Source: a virus (lineage: Duplodnaviria; Caudoviricetes). Taken from it: DNA of 64,000 nt. Numbering within the stretch: the stretch's first letter is position 1; each line of letters opens with the position of its first letter. Location of the stretch: the IMG/VR virus record IMGVR_UViG_3300010162_000393, positions 1 to 64,000 of that record; one strand, 5' to 3'. Shown piece by piece: positions 6,400 to 18,140 of this stretch. The notes under the pieces are model-generated. The model worked only from the letters and a program-made list of their open reading frames with translations. It made no database searches and had not been told where the DNA came from. Both the position numbers and the translations under genes were made by a program.

Positions 6400-7284
6400 T
6401 CAATAAAATTTCAATAATTTTTTCTGATCACTCTTATGCCCCGTCCTACGAAAAGCATTTCTCATTTTCCGCATAGACCTGTGGTAATAATTTGAAACTC
6501 GGTGATTTGGGATACCCAATTTTTCTGCTATATCACTGAATTTGGTCAAAGGTTCGTAGTCTATACCATAGTATAGTTTTACGATTTCTTGTTCTGTATA
6601 AGTAAGATATTCCAAATACCTTCCAACAAGATATTTGTTATAATCCTCATTAATAACATTTACAATTTCATTACAAGATGAGTATGCGCTGTTAAATTCG
6701 TTGATACCGGAAACATATTGTTCATCATCTGCTGGAATGTCGATTGAAATAGAAAAAATGTTTGATAAATCATTTTCATCTACCAATATGTTAAACATTT
6801 CTTCAAGTTTCTGTTTAACTATATTGTTATTTGCTTCGATACCTTCTACTGCGAGAATTTTTTCTATTTCTTTAATCCGCTTTTTCAGTTGCGGATCAAT
6901 TCGTTTATGTATCAAACATTTCTTATTGATATATTGTGAAATATATGAATATATCCAATTGACCGCATAACTTATGAATTTGAAACCATAGGTGACATCA
7001 AACCTTTCAAGGGCAATTAATAAACCGATATTACCCTCAGATATCATATCCATTAGTTCAATATCTGTAAAGGCAAATTTCTTAGCTACTGCCACAACAA
7101 AACGTTGATTACATTGAACGATTTTATCCCTACTTTTCATATCACCATTTCTGTAAGCGTGAAAAAGTTCTACTTCTTCATCCGGTGATAGAATAGGATA
7201 AGAACTAATATCATTATAATATTTGTTTAGAAGGTCGCTTCTATGAAAATTTTTTGGGGTTACTCTTGTGTTGATTCTACGCAT
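6400..7284 (-). CDS. Sigma70 (RpoD/SigA-like) RNA polymerase sigma factor, copy 2
   Basis: Region 1.2 (LNKYYNDI..LSPDEEVEL), NQRFVVAVAKK, DMISEGNIGL, FKFISYAV and a region-4 HTH. Likely start is the ATG at 7284, overlapping the upstream stop. Confidence 0.9.
   Translation of the reverse strand: MRRINTRVTPKNFHRSDLLNKYYNDISSYPILSPDEEVELFHAYRNGDMKSRDKIVQCNQRFVVAVAKKFAFTDIELMDMISEGNIGLLIALERFDVTYGFKFISYAVNWIYSYISQYINKKCLIHKRIDPQLKKRIKEIEKILAVEGIEANNNIVKQKLEEMFNILVDENDLSNIFSISIDIPADDEQYVSGINEFNSAYSSCNEIVNVINEDYNKYLVGRYLEYLTYTEQEIVKLYYGIDYEPLTKFSDIAEKLGIPNHRVSNYYHRSMRKMRNAFRRTGHKSDQKKLLKFY
6418..6430 (-). promoter_or_regulatory. TGATCAGAAAAAA recurrent upstream motif
   Basis: Lies inside the 3' end of sigma copy 2, about 60 nt upstream of the parB start. 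Confidence 0.55.
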
Positions 7285-10942: not shown

Positions 10943-11200
10943 TTAGTAGGTGGTTTCGTTCCATCTTTTTCGTAAGGAGTTTTGATGGTTTTTATCACTA
11001 TTTTTTCTCATTATTCTATCAGTTTTAAAAATACTGAGAATTTCATACAAACAACCTTCTATAGCACTACGTAAAGTATCGAACTTATAAAATTTACCTG
11101 TTTTTTTGTCAAGTGCTAACCACCCAAAATCTAACACCTCTACGTAATAATACTTTAACACATAGTATTTACGTATTTTCCTAAGTAATTTTGTTCTCAT
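10943..11200 (-). CDS. Hypothetical basic protein
   Basis: 85-aa ORF coupled (TGATG) to the methyltransferase stop. Confidence 0.7.
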   Translation of the reverse strand: MRTKLLRKIRKYYVLKYYYVEVLDFGWLALDKKTGKFYKFDTLRSAIEGCLYEILSIFKTDRIMRKNSDKNHQNSLRKRWNETTY

Positions 11201-12036
11201 CAGTAGTTCATATATAATGATTCGACCTTTGTTTTCGCTTTATTTGTACCACTAATGGTATTAACATTGAAATCAACTCTTTTCCACCCATTTCCTAAAA
11301 GAACATCATCATACAATTCACAACGATATCCGGAAACAAGGTATTTTGATTTTCCGTTTACAAGCAAATTGATGTATTTTTCTTGTGTTTCATCATCCAT
11401 ATCTACCGGATAACGACATTTTGTTCGAGTACAATGCGCATAAGGACTATCACAATAAAAGAAGTAGTCTGAATTATTATAATTTTCTATTATATCAAGA
11501 GCATCTCTGTTTAATATAATAAATCTCTGTATTTTTTCGTGTATTTCATACATTCCGTCAATAGAACTTAACATATCTGATACAGATTTAGAAGTTGTTC
11601 TTCTGATCGACATATTTTTACCAAAGGAAGCGTTATTACCACTGTAACTCATGCGATTCACGATGAAAAAGTGGTACGCACGTTCTTCAATAGAATACCC
11701 ATCTTTTTGTCCAGCTTCTTTTAACCATTCCAACGATTCATCAAAAATATCTTCTGAGTAAAATAGCAATTCTAGTTTTGATTTCAATTCTTCAAACGTT
11801 TCCTTATTTTGTAACACTTTGAAAAACGAATATATATTCTTATTTAAGTCATTGACTATGCAAGAACATTTCTTATTTGGTAGGTTTAATCCAACAACCA
11901 ATGACCCCATGAATGGTTCTACATAACTTACATAACTTTCAACCGGTGGAAAATGTTCGTATAAACTTGCTAACATATTTGATTTTCCGCCAAACGATCT
12001 GATACTTGAATTGATTTTCTTATCCTCCTTTGCCAT
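11200..12036 (-). CDS. D12-class (Dam-like) DNA adenine methyltransferase
   Basis: FGGKS, YVEPFMGS, NDLN, NRMSYSG. The catalytic motif reads DSPY instead of DPPY. Confidence 0.85.
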   Translation of the reverse strand: MAKEDKKINSSIRSFGGKSNMLASLYEHFPPVESYVSYVEPFMGSLVVGLNLPNKKCSCIVNDLNKNIYSFFKVLQNKETFEELKSKLELLFYSEDIFDESLEWLKEAGQKDGYSIEERAYHFFIVNRMSYSGNNASFGKNMSIRRTTSKSVSDMLSSIDGMYEIHEKIQRFIILNRDALDIIENYNNSDYFFYCDSPYAHCTRTKCRYPVDMDDETQEKYINLLVNGKSKYLVSGYRCELYDDVLLGNGWKRVDFNVNTISGTNKAKTKVESLYMNY

Positions 12037-12873: not shown

Positions 12874-13218
12874 TTAAATTAAAGTGGTTACATCTAAATC
12901 ATCAAGTCTCTCATAATCATATATTTTGATATGGCGATTGAAGGATTTTCCATGCGAGGATTTGTCTTCTCTATTAAGTGTACCAACAAATGATTCATAA
13001 TCATGTATTTCAACACCTTTGTATAAATATTGTGCTCCGCGGTTAAATACTATTATAACATCTACTGTTGGTACATCAAATTGTATTCCTTCCACCAATG
13101 TTTTTTTCTTTATTTCTTTTTTACCAAGATCTACTTTTGAATAATATATGTTACTCGATTGGTACCATATTTCTTCAATTTCTCCTATCTTTTTTATTTT
13201 CATATTAATTACCGCCAT
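12874..13218 (-). CDS. KTSC-domain protein
   Basis: SSNI...IVFNRGAQYLYKGV...SHGKSFNRHIK pattern. Confidence 0.75.
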   Translation of the reverse strand: MAVINMKIKKIGEIEEIWYQSSNIYYSKVDLGKKEIKKKTLVEGIQFDVPTVDVIIVFNRGAQYLYKGVEIHDYESFVGTLNREDKSSHGKSFNRHIKIYDYERLDDLDVTTLI

Positions 13219-13919
13219 ATATTTAAACGTTTTTTTGATATTTCACAATATTCCGGATCAATTTCAATACCAATAAAATCATACCCAAGATTAGCACAAG
13301 CAATTCCTGTACTTCCGGACCCTGAAAATGGATCAATTATAATTGAATCTTTAGGTAATACTCCTATTATTTTTTCACAGACCGCTATTGGAATTTGACA
13401 TGGGTGTTCAACTTTTTCTTTTGAAACGTTCTTGACCTGTTGTATTTCTATCCAATCCGTATCTTCGTTTTCTACTTTAAACCAGTCATACATTGGTGGA
13501 AATTTACCCTTCTCAATCATACCCTTGATACGTTTATCGTTTGGGTTTTTATACTCACCAGGAACTTGTTTTAAGTTTGGTTTTATACCATAATAACATA
13601 TTGAACGATGTTGTTTAGGTAAATGATTATTAAAAATCCAAACAATCTCTTTCGTTGGTGCCTGTCCTATTTCAATAGAATATCTATGTAATGATTCTGG
13701 ATAATGTAAAAGAACATGTGGAATCATATTACCATTATATTGACGATAAAATACGTTCTTAAGAAAATTCATATAATCATTTTCTTTCATATTATCACCA
13801 TATGATCTGTAAGAATATTTTACATTGTATGGAGGATCGCTGACATAAACCACACGACTATGATCGACATCTAATGTTGGTAATATATCTAAACAATGAC
13901 CTTCTATTATTTTAAGCAT
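13209..13919 (-). CDS. Beta-class N4-cytosine/N6-adenine DNA methyltransferase
   Basis: SDPPY near the N-terminus, HPCQIP, DPFSGSGST and GIEID. Confidence 0.9.
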   Translation of the reverse strand: MLKIIEGHCLDILPTLDVDHSRVVYVSDPPYNVKYSYRSYGDNMKENDYMNFLKNVFYRQYNGNMIPHVLLHYPESLHRYSIEIGQAPTKEIVWIFNNHLPKQHRSICYYGIKPNLKQVPGEYKNPNDKRIKGMIEKGKFPPMYDWFKVENEDTDWIEIQQVKNVSKEKVEHPCQIPIAVCEKIIGVLPKDSIIIDPFSGSGSTGIACANLGYDFIGIEIDPEYCEISKKRLNIWR

Positions 13920-14001
13920 AAAAAAAATGTGTTACTATTCTTACAATAATACATTTTATTTTTTTTAATTAGAAATAAATGATTTTCCGCAAAAATACCC
14001 C

Positions 14002-15240
14002 TTAATTGTGACATAATTTTGGAAATTTATTAGTTAATAATAACTTAATCGGGTTACATCCAAACCCTATACTGGCTGTCTGAAATACAGAATCACCAGA
14101 TGCCTTTCGCAATATGTTGAACGCAGCATTTACATCAGCATTTAACAGAATACCTTTCGAGGTTCTGAATAAACCCCGATTTACCCTTTTGCCAACATAA
14201 ACATCATGATGCCCAACCTCCTCCAAATCCAAAGAACTGCATTTTGACGTGTGAGATTCGTTGAAATCAACCAATCTTAGTCCTTGTCTTTCAGATTTGT
14301 ATCGCAACTGATTTATAAAAGGTTCAAATGGAATATTAACAAAATTTTGGTTTGTCTTTTTTCCAAGATTCACTTCCTGTTTCCAACCACTGTTGTAACC
14401 AACAATAATTGTGTTAATGTCGTGTTCAACACATTTGGAAACTATATTTTTGCTTGCCTTGTGTAAGTAATCCTTAACCTTGTTGTTGCGTTTCAAGGTT
14501 AGTTTTCTGATTTTTTTACTTGTTTTTCTACGGTGACATTTTTCTAAATTTGATTTTAATTTTGATAATTTCTTGTTATAAAACTGATTGATTGATTTCA
14601 ACGGTCTGCCGTTGATAATAAATGGTTTGGTTTCTGTGGAAATACAGGTTGCCAAATTATTGACACCAATGTCAATGGAAAGGTATTTTCCATTGTTTTC
14701 TTTTGGTTGTATAACAGATGTTTCGTAAACAACCTCTGCGACATAATATTCCGATTTTGGGATAAATCTAACTTGTTTGATTTGTTCTCTAGGGATATTG
14801 GTTTTCAATGGGGTAATACCCTCTTTTTTGGGAAATGTGATATAACCGTTTTTATACCCAAACTGACAATATGTATATATCAAAACGTTTCTTCCTTCAG
14901 TTTTGTGTTTATATTTTGGAAATTTTGGTTTTCCGTTAAAACCTGTTTTATTAGTTTTCCACTTTTTGATAGATTCAAAGTAAGATTTAAAATCTTTGTC
15001 AAGCAACATCAAGGTTTGTTGAGATGAGTGGTTGCTTATTGCTTTATAATCAACCTGATTTTCTGTTTTGAATTTTTTTTCTAATTCAGTGTATCTTATC
15101 CATTTACCGGTTTTTAGGAATTCTTGTTTTACAACATATAAAGCGGCGTTGTATAAGTTTTTCGACTTAAAACATGCTTCGTCTATCCGTTTATAAGACG
15201 GATGATTTTGTTTGATAATATGTTGTTCAACCAACTTCAT
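14002..15240 (-). CDS. tnpB: RNA-guided endonuclease TnpB family protein
   Basis: SKNLYNAALY N-terminus, RuvC-I SIDIGVNNL, IIVGYNSGWKQ, NESHTSK and RuvC-III NADVNAAFNI. Confidence 0.93.
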   Translation of the reverse strand: MKLVEQHIIKQNHPSYKRIDEACFKSKNLYNAALYVVKQEFLKTGKWIRYTELEKKFKTENQVDYKAISNHSSQQTLMLLDKDFKSYFESIKKWKTNKTGFNGKPKFPKYKHKTEGRNVLIYTYCQFGYKNGYITFPKKEGITPLKTNIPREQIKQVRFIPKSEYYVAEVVYETSVIQPKENNGKYLSIDIGVNNLATCISTETKPFIINGRPLKSINQFYNKKLSKLKSNLEKCHRRKTSKKIRKLTLKRNNKVKDYLHKASKNIVSKCVEHDINTIIVGYNSGWKQEVNLGKKTNQNFVNIPFEPFINQLRYKSERQGLRLVDFNESHTSKCSSLDLEEVGHHDVYVGKRVNRGLFRTSKGILLNADVNAAFNILRKASGDSVFQTASIGFGCNPIKLLLTNKFPKLCHN

Positions 15241-15262
15241 TTTAACAAGATGATTTTAAGAA

Positions 15263-15275
15263 TTTTTTCTGATCA
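15263..15275 (-). promoter_or_regulatory. TGATCAGAAAAAA recurrent upstream motif inside the TnpB element
   Basis: Lies between the inverted repeat and the tnpB ATG. Confidence 0.55.
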
Positions 15276-15317
15276 TCATTTATCAGGGGTATTCTTGCGG
15301 AAAATCATTTAGAAATA

Positions 15318-16235
15318 TCACGAATTACTAATCCTCGTACATGCTTCATTACCACCTTTCATAAAAAGATGTGCAAAACTACCTCTACCGTGACACATGT
15401 TTATAAACCTATCTAGTGTTACAAACAGTTTTTTTGGATCAGAATAGTTTCTATCAAACTCTGCTGTTAGATTAAAAAATCCATCCAACGGTGAGTCAGT
15501 TTCAAATGCACCGCTACCATCTTCGCTATCACCGAAATTGCTTTCAATATATCTTGTGAATGGTATCCAATACGTTCTATTAAAATATCTTGATCTTTCA
15601 TCGGTACATTCTTCTTTGGTAACAGGTATTTTTTCATCTCCTGTTAGATCTCGCCACATACGATTAAGGGTTAATTCACCTTTTGAGTTTGTAATTCTTG
15701 GATCTAAACTAGGACCACTTGTCAGGTATGAATTTGCTGCTAATTGTGATAGGTTATCTTTTGCATTTGCAACCCAATCCATAATTCTCGGAACCCAATA
15801 ATCGTCATAAGCGCCGGATTGTGGTTTCATATAACTGTACTGTTGAATACACCTTAAATATTCATCAGGATCTATTAATTTCCAACGTTGTTTTCTACCG
15901 CTTTTGAAACCCTCATATACCTGTCGCACTACGTTGTTCGGATTGTGAAGAGATAAGGTGTCGGTCTTCAAATTTGACATAAATTCTGAAAACGTGTTAT
16001 ACGCCTCAGTCAAAAGAATATCGGTAACGTTATGTAAAATTTCAAAAATCGGATGATTTCTATCAATTTTACCTTTACGCATTTCAATCAAAAGATCATG
16101 ATTGAATACGGTTTTATCACCTCTTTTTATTTCCAACAATGTTTGTGGTTTATAGTTTGTTGGTTTAGCCGGATCGTATCCCATTAAAAACTTGAAACGT
16201 CTTGTCGCTTCATTAATAACTTCTTGTTTATTCAT
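15318..16235 (-). CDS. Hypothetical protein, tandem paralogue 1 of 3
   Basis: EVINEATRRFKFLMGY N-terminus, LIDPDEYLRCIQQYSYMKPQSGAYDDYW core and a CHxRG..MKGGNEA C-terminus shared with its neighbours. Confidence 0.88.
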   Translation of the reverse strand: MNKQEVINEATRRFKFLMGYDPAKPTNYKPQTLLEIKRGDKTVFNHDLLIEMRKGKIDRNHPIFEILHNVTDILLTEAYNTFSEFMSNLKTDTLSLHNPNNVVRQVYEGFKSGRKQRWKLIDPDEYLRCIQQYSYMKPQSGAYDDYWVPRIMDWVANAKDNLSQLAANSYLTSGPSLDPRITNSKGELTLNRMWRDLTGDEKIPVTKEECTDERSRYFNRTYWIPFTRYIESNFGDSEDGSGAFETDSPLDGFFNLTAEFDRNYSDPKKLFVTLDRFINMCHGRGSFAHLFMKGGNEACTRISNS

Positions 16236-16277
16236 TTTTAATTTTTTTATTAAAATAATTTTGATAAAATTTTCTGA

Positions 16278-17192
16278 TCAAGAGTTGCTAATCCTTGAAC
16301 ACGCTTCGTTTCCACCTTTCATAAATATATGTCCTAAACCACCTCTGTTGTGACACATGTTTTTCAATCTATCCAACGTTACAAACAGTTTTTTTGGATC
16401 TGAGTAATTTTTATCAAAATCGGCAACAATATTAAATAGACCATCTAATGGTGAATCTGTTTCGTAACTTTCAGAACCTTCACCATATCTTGTTTGAATA
16501 TATTTTGTGAATGGTCTCCAATAATTATCAAAAAACTCTCTTTCGGCGATAGAATCGTTACCACACTGACCCGGTCTGTATGGTATTTCTTCATCACCTG
16601 TTAGATTATACCACATTAATGCAAGAAGATTTTCTCCTTTTGCATTTTCATTATCCTGTTCAAGAGTTGGACCACTACATAAGTATGAATTTGCAGCAAA
16701 TTGTGCAACATTATCTTTTGCATTTGCTACCCATTCCATGATTATACGTGCCCAATAATCGTCATATGCACCAGACTGTGGTTTCATATAAGAGTATTGT
16801 TGGATACACCTTAAGTATTCATCAGGATCTATCAATTTCCAACGTTGCGCTCTACCACTTTTGAAACCTTCATACGTTTGTCGAATCACATTATTTGGGT
16901 TTCGTAGGGAATCTCTGTCTGTCTTCAACTTTGACATAAATTCTGAGAACGTATCGTATGCTTCGGTTAGAAGAATATCATTCACATTGTGTAAAACCTC
17001 AAAAATAACATGTTTTTTATCAATTTTACCTTCACGCATTTCTACCAAAACGTCATGGTTGAACACGGTTTTATCACCCATCTTGATTTCCATCAGAGAT
17101 TGTGTTTTGTAATTTCTTGGTTTAGCAGGATCATATCCCATTAAAAACCTGAAACGTCTTGTTACTTCATTAATTACTTCTTCTCTACTCAT
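16278..17192 (-). CDS. Hypothetical protein, tandem paralogue 2 of 3
   Basis: Same conserved blocks. Its TGA stop overlaps a TGATCAGAAAA motif. Confidence 0.88.
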   Translation of the reverse strand: MSREEVINEVTRRFRFLMGYDPAKPRNYKTQSLMEIKMGDKTVFNHDVLVEMREGKIDKKHVIFEVLHNVNDILLTEAYDTFSEFMSKLKTDRDSLRNPNNVIRQTYEGFKSGRAQRWKLIDPDEYLRCIQQYSYMKPQSGAYDDYWARIIMEWVANAKDNVAQFAANSYLCSGPTLEQDNENAKGENLLALMWYNLTGDEEIPYRPGQCGNDSIAEREFFDNYWRPFTKYIQTRYGEGSESYETDSPLDGLFNIVADFDKNYSDPKKLFVTLDRLKNMCHNRGGLGHIFMKGGNEACSRISNS

Positions 17193-17237
17193 TTTAAATA
17201 ATTTTTATATCAAAATAATTTTAATAAATTTTTCTGA

Positions 17238-18140
17238 TCAAGAGTTGCTAATCATTTTACTAGCTTCATTTCCTCCTTTCATAAAAATATGTGCAAAACC
17301 ACCTCTTGAATGACACATGTTTTTCAATCTGTCCAATGTTACAAACAATTTTTTAGGGTCAGTGTAATTTTTATCAAATGCAGCAACAATATTGAATAAA
17401 CCATCTAACGCTGAATCTGTTTCATAGGCTTCAGCATAATTGGAACCAATATATCTAAAAAATGCACCCCAGTGTTCTTTGAAAAACACCTTTTCTGCTT
17501 CTGAACTATCGGTACATTCTCCTGGTCTGTATGGTATTTTTTCATCACCGGTTAAATTATACCACAATAAAGCATGAAGATTTTGATTATTTGAATTTCC
17601 CTCATATCGTTTAAGTGTTGGACCGTTGCATAGATATGAATTTGCTGCCAACTGTGCAACATTATCCTTTGCGTTTGCAACCCACTCCATAATTCTTGGA
17701 ACCCAATAATCGTCGTATGCCCCGGATTGTGGTTTCATATAAGAGTATTGTTGGATACATCTTAAATATTCATCCGGGTCGATTAATATCCAACGTTGTT
17801 TTCTACCGCTTTTGAAACCTTCGTAAACCTGTCGAACAATGTTATTTGAATTTGAAATAGATTGTTTATCTGTTTTCAAATCCTCCATAAATTCTGAAAA
17901 GGTATTGTACGCCTCAGTCAAAAGAATATCCGTAACATTATCTAAAATCTCATAAATAATATGATTTTTACTAATATTGCCGTTACGCATTTCAACTAAA
18001 AGAGAGTGATCAAATACAGTTTTATCACCTCTCTTAATTTCGTCTAATGTTTGTGGTGCGTAGTTCGTTGGGTTAGCGGGATTATATCCCATCAAAAACC
18101 TGAAACGCCTTGTTGCCTCATTGATAACTTCTCTTTCCAC
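17238..18140 (-). CDS. Hypothetical protein, tandem paralogue 3 of 3
   Basis: Same conserved blocks. GTG start preceded by TTATTTATA on the minus strand. Its TGA stop overlaps a TGATCAGAAAA motif. Confidence 0.88.
   Translation of the reverse strand: MEREVINEATRRFRFLMGYNPANPTNYAPQTLDEIKRGDKTVFDHSLLVEMRNGNISKNHIIYEILDNVTDILLTEAYNTFSEFMEDLKTDKQSISNSNNIVRQVYEGFKSGRKQRWILIDPDEYLRCIQQYSYMKPQSGAYDDYWVPRIMEWVANAKDNVAQLAANSYLCNGPTLKRYEGNSNNQNLHALLWYNLTGDEKIPYRPGECTDSSEAEKVFFKEHWGAFFRYIGSNYAEAYETDSALDGLFNIVAAFDKNYTDPKKLFVTLDRLKNMCHSRGGFAHIFMKGGNEASKMISNS

Follow-up and report, generated by a model that had tools for sequence, protein, structure and literature searches.

A tnpB unit between IS1595-type ends in a large phage: a probable mobile insertion cassette with a possible internal guide

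We describe a 1,332-bp element, E1, from a large phage. It is best explained as a non-autonomous mobile insertion cassette (MIC) with ends of the IS1595 family, whose sole cargo would be a tnpB/omega-RNA unit; we put the probability of this overall explanation at about 0.8. The 25-mer family to which its left terminal inverted repeat (TIR) belongs also bounds two further cassettes, E2 and E3, as well as MITEs and an element encoding an IS1595 transposase. The window that we analysed is the first 64 kb of an IMG/VR virus record of 136,864 bp (32% G+C, estimated to be 38% complete). A related record is 367 kb long, carries direct terminal repeats and has a rating of complete, from which we take the phage carrying E1 to be very large.

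Boundaries and setting of E1

E1 occupies positions 13978-15309 of the window, and its only long open reading frame (ORF) is tnpB. Within the 2.3-kb region from 13500 to 15800, the strongest inverted repeat pairs 13976-14002 with 15285-15311 (27 nt, 96%), the runner-up being 30 nt long at 77%; we estimate the chance expectation for pairs like that of E1 in this region at approximately 3e-6. The left TIR, AATGATTTTCCGCAAAAATACCCCT, lies on the tnpB 3' side at 13978-14002 (plus strand) and is complementary at 24 of 25 positions to the right TIR, which lies on the tnpB 5' side at 15285-15309 (minus strand; reverse complement AATGATTTTCCGCAAGAATACCCCT). The same 8-mer, TAGAAATA, flanks the element on the left (13970-13977) and on the right (15310-15317), although counting the final T of the right TIR would extend the duplication to 9 bp. 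These measurements confirm the unit, the TIRs and the 8-bp target-site duplication that an earlier sequence-only reading of the window had given.

That reading had also placed E1 directly beside the stop of the upstream gene, with the tnpB stop at the TIR, and both statements hold. The TGA stop (15318-15320) of a 305-aa gene (15318-16235, minus strand) touches the right 8-mer, and the stop codon of tnpB shares the innermost base of the left TIR. The left neighbour encodes an N6/N4 DNA methyltransferase; the insertion point is the spacer between these two genes.

The TIR family and its transposase

A search of metagenome contigs with a loosened TIR pattern returned 79 loci, nearly all of them true members of a single family with the consensus (A/T)ATGAT(T/A)(T/A)TCCGCAA-NNNN-ACCCC(T). 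The 15 TIR pairs range from MITEs of 165-330 bp up to elements of 0.7-2.2 kb. Both flanks were readable, and flanking repeats could be scored, for 13 of these pairs: nine have direct repeats matching at 8/8 positions and three more at 7/8, and the repeated sequences are unrelated to each other (for example, AATAGCGA, TAAATGGT and AAAAGTTA). An 8-bp duplication, as in the IS1595 family, is seen at 8/8 positions in both E1 and E2.

One of the pairs, L194, spans 2,161 bp and encloses a 316-aa ORF that matches PF12762 (2.1e-16), the IS1595 DDE domain, and PF12760 (1.8e-9), the N-terminal IS1595 zinc ribbon. Its TIRs differ from the consensus at 1 and 3 positions, variable positions excluded, and its target duplication is unreadable because the contig ends. 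The same two domains (PF12762, PF12760) occur at L242, and a 316-aa ORF at L249 clusters with the L194 and L242 transposases. In L284, a viral contig of 145 kb, a TIR is found 128 nt from the gene for a 71%-identical transposase, and a second TIR was not found in the DNA around the transposase that we examined. The autonomous copies are known from short metagenome contigs. Other TIR pairs carry genes of the DUF3293/S-adenosylmethionine-lyase-like kind, one of them in the 367-kb phage; no TnpB-like ORF of at least 100 aa was found at the 79 TIR loci.

Because these TIRs are common to copies that encode an IS1595 DDE transposase, the family is of the IS1595 type, and the evidence supports E1 as one of its non-autonomous cargo cassettes. 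The sequence-only reading had argued from the TIRs and the duplication that the ends were of the DDE type and that TnpB had been captured by a non-autonomous DDE element. Both proposals are supported by the TIR family: the ends of E1 recur on the L194 element, with its IS1595-type DDE domain and zinc ribbon, and on MITEs and cargo cassettes that have 8-bp duplications of their own. Candidates for the autonomous partner for which it had suggested a search are the L194-type copies in metagenome contigs, with none in the record.

No transposase had been seen in the window, and the same is true of the whole 136,864-bp record, which contains neither PF12762 nor a Y1 transposase; this search covered about 38% of the estimated phage genome, and the missing part could encode one. 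Since tnpB is the sole ORF of E1 and PF12762 does not occur in the record, we classify E1 as a cassette, or MIC, and not as an autonomous insertion sequence. The complete 367-kb relative contains three TIR elements (L195, L229 and L250), and encodes neither an IS1595 transposase nor a TnpB. Among 401 sampled genomes of the order Bacteroidales, we found a single TIR match, inside an 820-aa ORF and attributable to chance; species-representative genomes gave 10 single, chance-like matches and no pairs. A scan of viral contigs with the 14-nt TIR core returned more than 100 unrelated matches and was uninformative.

Further cassettes with the same ends

Searching the record with E1 revealed a second TIR pair, E2, at 90188-91454. 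Each of its ends has the 25-mer of E1, whereas its duplicated 8-mer is a different one, TTCTAATT, matching at 8/8 positions on the two flanks. Its sole gene encodes a 397-aa TnpB that is 24% identical to the TnpB of E1. A further copy with a different duplication, which the sequence-only reading had proposed to look for, is thus present in the same record; the contrary case, in which there is no second copy or the repeats are fixed features of the host genome, does not hold.

E3 (L187) comes from another metagenome and encodes a TnpB 79% identical to that of E1. Its TIRs have 2 and 5 mismatches, and its tnpB stop codon abuts the TIR as in E1. The flanks of E3 are unrelated to those of E1, which places it at a different locus. 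It lacks a clean duplication, with the flanking 8-mers agreeing at 4/8 positions. At another TIR locus, L253, lies the 5' end of a further E2-type cassette.

A separate observation concerns the insertion sites of E1 and E2, which both contain the 9-mer AATTAGAAA; by a rough estimate, the chance of this is approximately 0.3%. The 9-mer is offset by 3 bp from the duplications and is absent from the other duplications.

We also considered whether tnpB might lie between the repeats by coincidence, the repeats being either chance similarities or fixed features of the phage, for instance sites of inversion or regulation. The AT-richness of the region and the recurrent intergenic motifs of the phage speak for this explanation. 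However, the 25-mer family bounds dozens of unrelated elements with 8-bp duplications of their own, and it also bounds an IS1595 transposase; in the entire record there are only four copies of the TIR, and these form exactly two pairs, E1 and E2. The family-wide duplications, the transposase and the two-pair count refute this explanation, to which we assign next to no probability.

TnpB proteins of E1 and E2

The tnpB gene of E1 (14002-15240, minus strand) encodes a protein of 412 aa, P0001, of the rearranged-RuvC-II type. It matches the Pfam families OrfB_IS605 (PF01385, 8.9e-28) and Cas12f1-like_TNB (PF07282, 2.2e-11). A phmmer search of P0001 against the PDB returned no match, but a search with a profile of the clade did match solved structures, those of ISDra2 TnpB and Cas12f. 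In an alignment of 26 sequences, the RuvC residues D190, E328 and D369 (the last in NADVN) are invariant; of these, D190 and D369 are canonical. The position of the canonical RuvC-II glutamate is occupied by G281 (in GYN), with the invariant E328 downstream of it, and the protein is without a CxxC zinc finger. The C-terminal tail, FPKLCHN, is not conserved and is encoded by the 22-nt spacer at 14003-14024. By its motifs, P0001 looks like a member of the rearranged RuvC-II/NADxN clade. Since E328 is invariant and would compensate for the absent RuvC-II glutamate, the E1 TnpB is probably an active nuclease. The main text of Altae-Tran et al. (PMC10691335) predicts that clades with a rearranged RuvC-II are active, and the motifs of P0001 agree with this.

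The TnpB of E2 has an N-terminal HTH, an IEDL RuvC-II motif, a DRDFN RuvC-III motif and a CxxC...CxxC zinc finger, and looks, from these motifs, like a typical DRDxN protein. Under the motif definitions in the main text of Altae-Tran et al. 2023 (PMC10691335), the predicted proteins of E1 and E2 fall into two different major clades.

Relatives of P0001 occur at 46 viral loci with 38-54% identity, and phage contigs of crAss size carry relatives of 61-64% identity. The TIR of E1 is absent from all of the relatives at viral loci and on crAss-size contigs, most of which are without any flanking inverted repeat. In other words, the TIR is not a trait of this TnpB clade. Weak AT-rich inverted repeats flank a few TnpB relatives (L153, L179).

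The omega-RNA scaffold and the position of the guide

A predicted omega-RNA scaffold overlaps the 3' end of tnpB at 14025-14245 (minus strand; the 5' limit is approximate) and ends with two hairpins followed by AAUAAAU. Between this terminus, which would be the native right end of the omega-RNA unit, and the TIR lies the 22-nt spacer (14003-14024, minus strand), the predicted position of the guide. The closest TIR-less relative is present in three copies on one phage contig. The sequence that these copies share begins about 85 nt before the ATG and runs exactly to the stop codon (...GAATAAATAG), which places the native right end there. A terminal ...AATAAAT is common to E1, E3, the crAss-size copies (L272 and others) and these three copies (L138, L140 and L146), with divergence directly after it. 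From this shared terminus, we infer that the scaffold ends at position 14025 of the window.

Several features point to a structured scaffold in this region. E1 and L272 translate the block TTAACTAATAAAT in different frames, which argues that it is conserved as nucleic acid and not as protein. Across the clade, the last 60 nt contain two hairpins, one of the form GGGTT...AACCC and another that preserves its pairing although its sequence varies, together with 3-7 unpaired bases; the two terminal hairpins were recovered in 10 of 17 single-sequence folds. In a helix farther upstream, each of five pairs shows 6-9 double-sided changes among 17 relatives. The nucleotide identity of E1 and E3 is approximately 97% over the last 180 nt or so before AATAAAT, compared to 60-85% in the 5' half of the gene; it collapses over the spacers (22 nt in E1, 31 nt in E3) and recovers in the TIR (22/25).

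Because 22 nt of sequence internal to the cassette separate the scaffold from the TIR, the most likely guide of E1 would be a fixed internal stretch, from 14024 to about 14005 on the minus strand, and not one derived from the flank. We favour this placement at slightly better than even odds. An E2-like remnant (L009) has a compatible layout, in which a conserved ...GCGTCAATT is followed by 17-20 variable nt and then by the TIR, as an internal guide in E2-type cassettes would predict. The predicted 20-nt guide of E1 has two exact matches, both to one picorna-like RNA virus that was sampled twice (encoding RdRP, helicase and 3C protease); we rejected this virus as a target, because matches at about this level are expected by chance for an AT-rich 20-mer and the target is biologically implausible. 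The predicted 20-nt guide of E3 has no exact match, and neither guide has near matches in the phage record.

The sequence-only reading had expected an omega RNA that runs through the TIR into the flank. Under such an arrangement, the guide would consist of the duplication and the adjoining phage DNA, and TnpB would cut empty or excised sites and so restore the cassette, as has been proposed for DDE-associated TnpBs and for Fanzors. The position of the tnpB 3' end, at most 25 bp from the end of the element, is in keeping with this, as are the main text of PMC10691335, which places the 3' ends of TnpBs no more than 250 bp from the ends of DDE transposons and suggests that guides may be acquired in related ways, and a review (PMC13565253) in which the 5' TSD is part of the TAM for Fanzors. 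However, the clade-wide scaffold terminus precedes the TIR by 22 nt in E1 and 31 nt in E3. With that spacer and the 25-bp TIR between them, the flank would begin only 47-56 nt past the scaffold, and at a varying distance. Furthermore, the two hairpins and AATAAAT mark the end of the element, at the stop, in relatives that lack a TIR, and in E2 the identical TIR follows an unrelated scaffold. A flank-derived guide is therefore unlikely.

A different account of the spacer is that a Y1 TnpA placed an intact TnpB-only element of the IS200/IS605 type into an IS1595 MITE, beside its TIR. The 22 nt would then be left over from the MITE interior, and the guide would match copies of the MITE that had not been invaded. 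Such nesting would leave a native right end inside the cassette, followed by a guide-length stretch, as we see; short MITEs with these TIRs are common, and two unrelated TnpBs stand in the same TIR frame. On the other hand, no native left end is found: 5 nt precede the ATG in E3, and the 44 nt in E1 hold a phage motif. The record is without a Y1 transposase, and none of approximately 70 TIR loci has sub-terminal sequence matching the spacer of E1 or E3. (A sub-TIR similarity to the E1 spacer at L253 was rejected, as it belongs to the 5' end of the E2-type cassette there.) We consider nesting unlikely, and retain capture of a tnpB/omega-RNA unit by IS1595-type ends as the preferred reading.

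Leader and left end

The 44-nt leader of tnpB (15241-15284, minus strand) contains a phage promoter-like motif, GATCAGAAAA, at 15265-15274; with its extended consensus, the motif stands 24 nt upstream of the tnpB ATG. The window holds eight copies, against 0.22 expected, and the record 14; every copy is on the minus strand, and most have an ORF start 24-67 nt downstream. Upstream of E1 are three tandem paralogous genes that are 70-71% identical, and in the first two of these the TGA stop is embedded in the GATCAGAAAA motif. With a phage-type motif before it, tnpB is placed as if it were the next gene in this row of paralogues, and it is probably transcribed from the leader motif. In E3, there are only 5 nt between the TIR and the ATG; judged from these two leaders, the native left end of the TnpB unit is gone in both E1 and E3.

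Mobility and origin

Identical TnpB was found on eight contigs, which come from four samples, and its two neighbouring genes are the same on every one; all eight contigs may derive from one phage population. E1 looks fixed in the sampled phage lineage. The empty allele that the sequence-only reading had hoped to find did not appear: no viral contig matches the reconstructed junction exactly, and the 367-kb relative shows no synteny here, its 72% homologue of the flanking gene having different neighbours. A second site for E1 itself was likewise not found. That the cassette type moves is indicated by the different locus of E3 and by the TIR family as a whole.

The constancy of the site (8/8 contigs) raises the question of whether the cassette is now immobile and TnpB, with its hard-wired guide, serves the phage against a competitor or host sequence or in regulation. 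In favour of this, the cassette contains a promoter-like motif of the phage, in line with the tandem genes upstream; the ORF is intact, its putative catalytic triad is invariant, and the scaffold is strongly conserved relative to E3. Yet TIRs matching at 24/25 and a duplication at 8/8 suggest an insertion that is young or still constrained, no target was found for the internal 20-mer beyond the apparently chance match to the picorna-like virus, and the constancy of the site may reflect a single sampled population. We regard domestication as rather unlikely.

Under the preferred reading, an IS1595 DDE transposase acting in trans, from the host or a co-resident element, would have inserted E1 as a single unit; such supply in trans is suggested because neither the record nor the 367-kb relative contains a transposase. 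The cargo would derive from a TnpB-only unit of the IS200/IS605 type that kept its right end (...AAUAAAU at 14025) and lost its left end. The guide would travel with the cassette and not be re-read from each new flank, while tnpB would be expressed from the phage-type leader motif and the putative nuclease would cut by means of its alternative glutamate. We offer the fullest version of this account tentatively, at somewhat less than even odds: that IS1595-type ends have repeatedly captured tnpB/omega-RNA units of different clades together with a guide-length stretch, giving a cassette with a hard-wired guide and a giant-phage promoter.

Comparison with known systems

The main text of Altae-Tran et al. 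(2023, PNAS; PMC10691335) describes six DDE-associated TnpB branches (DDE-1 to DDE-6), each of which has inverted terminal repeats, as well as solo TnpBs flanked by near-identical ends, for which mobilisation in trans was inferred. IS630 is the only partner family named there, and a 2026 review (PMC13565253) lists ISL2, IS630 and IS1031; IS1595 is named as a TnpB partner neither in the main text of the former nor in the review. The general arrangement of a TnpB within DDE ends has thus been known since 2023, and the IS1595 partner and the internal guide position appear to be new. E1 resembles the DDE-1 to DDE-6 cases, as set out in that main text, in having tnpB inside DDE inverted repeats with its 3' end near one end of the element, in the lack of a transposase in cis, and in the near-identical ends of transposase-bearing copies. 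In contrast to them, it keeps a recognisable native right end of the IS200/IS605 type 22 nt inside the TIR, and hence a probable internal position for the guide, and in one phage its TIR family bears TnpBs from two major clades.

Two groups of insertion sequences offer comparisons for the ends and for the cargo. MICs and the passenger-carrying IS1595 groups (ISfinder) have insertion-sequence ends and a target duplication around passenger genes, without a transposase. The TIR family of E1 is similar in that it also carries DUF3293/SAM-lyase-like cargo and forms MITEs; E1 differs in that an RNA-guided nuclease is encoded by its passenger, which is itself left over from another transposon family. 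With the IS1341 group, the TnpB-only IS200/IS605 elements, E1 shares its cargo, a solo tnpB with an omega-RNA scaffold over its 3' end, and the closest TIR-less relatives of its TnpB are such elements in phages. Unlike that group, E1 is bounded externally by TIRs and an 8-bp duplication, and it has no left end that we can recognise. IS200/IS605 elements are defined by the lack of TIRs and of a duplication and by asymmetric hairpin ends; the outer ends of E1 show none of this, while a terminus resembling the right end survives internally.

In eukaryotes, TIR/DDE transposons reportedly carry Fanzor1, as Saito et al. are said to have found in 2023. Bao and Jurka (2013; PMC3627910) described Fanzor1 in the same setting. 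The parallel that the sequence-only reading had drawn with Fanzor capture stands insofar as capture by a DDE element is supported, but E1 is not the first prokaryotic case, as such cases appear in the main text published in 2023 (PMC10691335). The likeness lies in a TnpB-family nuclease within cut-and-paste TIR elements that make TSDs. E1 differs from Fanzor1 in being prokaryotic, in a phage, and in having no eukaryotic adaptations; moreover, the Fanzor guide is reported to come from the flank, whereas that of E1 is probably internal. The typical TnpB/OMEGA system likewise takes its guide from the flank of the right end, a feature that E1 appears to lack.

The persistence of TnpB is thought to depend on a guide that is re-read from each flank and so restores the transposon after scarless excision. 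DDE cut-and-paste transposition breaks this logic, and the rare association of TnpB with DDE elements is treated in reviews as a puzzle. E1 is a compact and well-bounded case of this association, with an apparently unreported partner family, IS1595, and with the predicted native end of the RNA visible inside borrowed ends. It makes testable whether the guide of a DDE-borne TnpB is derived from the flank or is fixed and internal, and what benefit it brings to the phage. For specialists, the interest lies in the partner family, in the two TnpB clades within one TIR frame in one phage, and in the probable internal guide. The locus also reveals that IS1595-type cassettes ferry varied cargo, including TnpB and SAM-lyase-like genes, among giant gut phages. 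If the fuller account is true, E1 would represent a transposon-borne, CRISPR-less, RNA-guided nuclease with a fixed target, uncoupled from the restorative homing that flank-derived guides direct.

Insertion sites of the two cassettes

When the empty sites of E1, the 1,332-bp tnpB cassette, and of E2, the second tnpB cassette in the same viral record, are reconstructed, both contain the 9-mer AATTAGAAA / TTTCTAATT (positions 13967-13975 of the window and 90179-90187 of the record, respectively). We roughly estimate the probability that the two sites have this 9-mer in common by chance at 0.3%. The 9-mer is offset by 3 bp from the target-site duplications of E1 and E2, and its orientation relative to tnpB at the E1 site is opposite to that at the E2 site. 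No such motif is seen in other members of the terminal inverted repeat (TIR) family.

Gene neighborhood and a promoter-like motif

Three tandem paralogous genes occupy positions 15318-18140 on the minus strand, with a family-B DNA polymerase gene just upstream. Their products (305, 304 and 300 aa) are 70-71% identical, end in a common C-terminus, ...RISNS, and have no match in Pfam. Just downstream of E1, also on the minus strand, are two DNA methyltransferase genes, one of the Dam-like D12 class (11200-12036) and one of the N6/N4 class (13209-13919).

For the two upstream paralogues, the TGA stop forms part of the following gene's GATCAGAAAA motif. The record contains 14 copies of this motif (at window positions 329-23447 and in the rest of the record up to 131308), all on the minus strand and with an extended consensus of roughly aatt.tt.aaaatt.tatt. 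ORF starts lie mostly 24-67 nt downstream of these copies, and the motif itself is likely a phage promoter or regulatory signal.

E2-related sequences and other cargo of the TIR family

In L009, a 135-kb viral contig, a single TIR is followed by approximately 90 nt matching the scaffold region at the 3' end of tnpB in E2 and then by unrelated DNA (6936-7060); L221 and L230 contain the same sequence. The segment represents either an E2-type cassette in truncated form or an orphan omega-RNA-like remnant. The short metagenome contig L253 carries the 5' end of a further E2-type cassette, comprising a TIR, approximately 100 nt and a TnpB N-terminus (MLKAYKYRLNP...; 1721-1954), adjoined by a 269-aa gene.

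The transposase-bearing 2.16-kb IS1595 element of L194 has approximately 1 kb of additional sequence, where a 217-aa plus-strand ORF (145-798) with no Pfam match may be a passenger gene. IS1595-type TIRs of E1's family also enclose DUF3293/S-adenosylmethionine-lyase-like genes at L250:8738-9598, in a complete 367-kb relative phage, and at L217:1506-2297 and L235:211-1011. These genes could be anti-restriction cargo that is mobile as cassettes.
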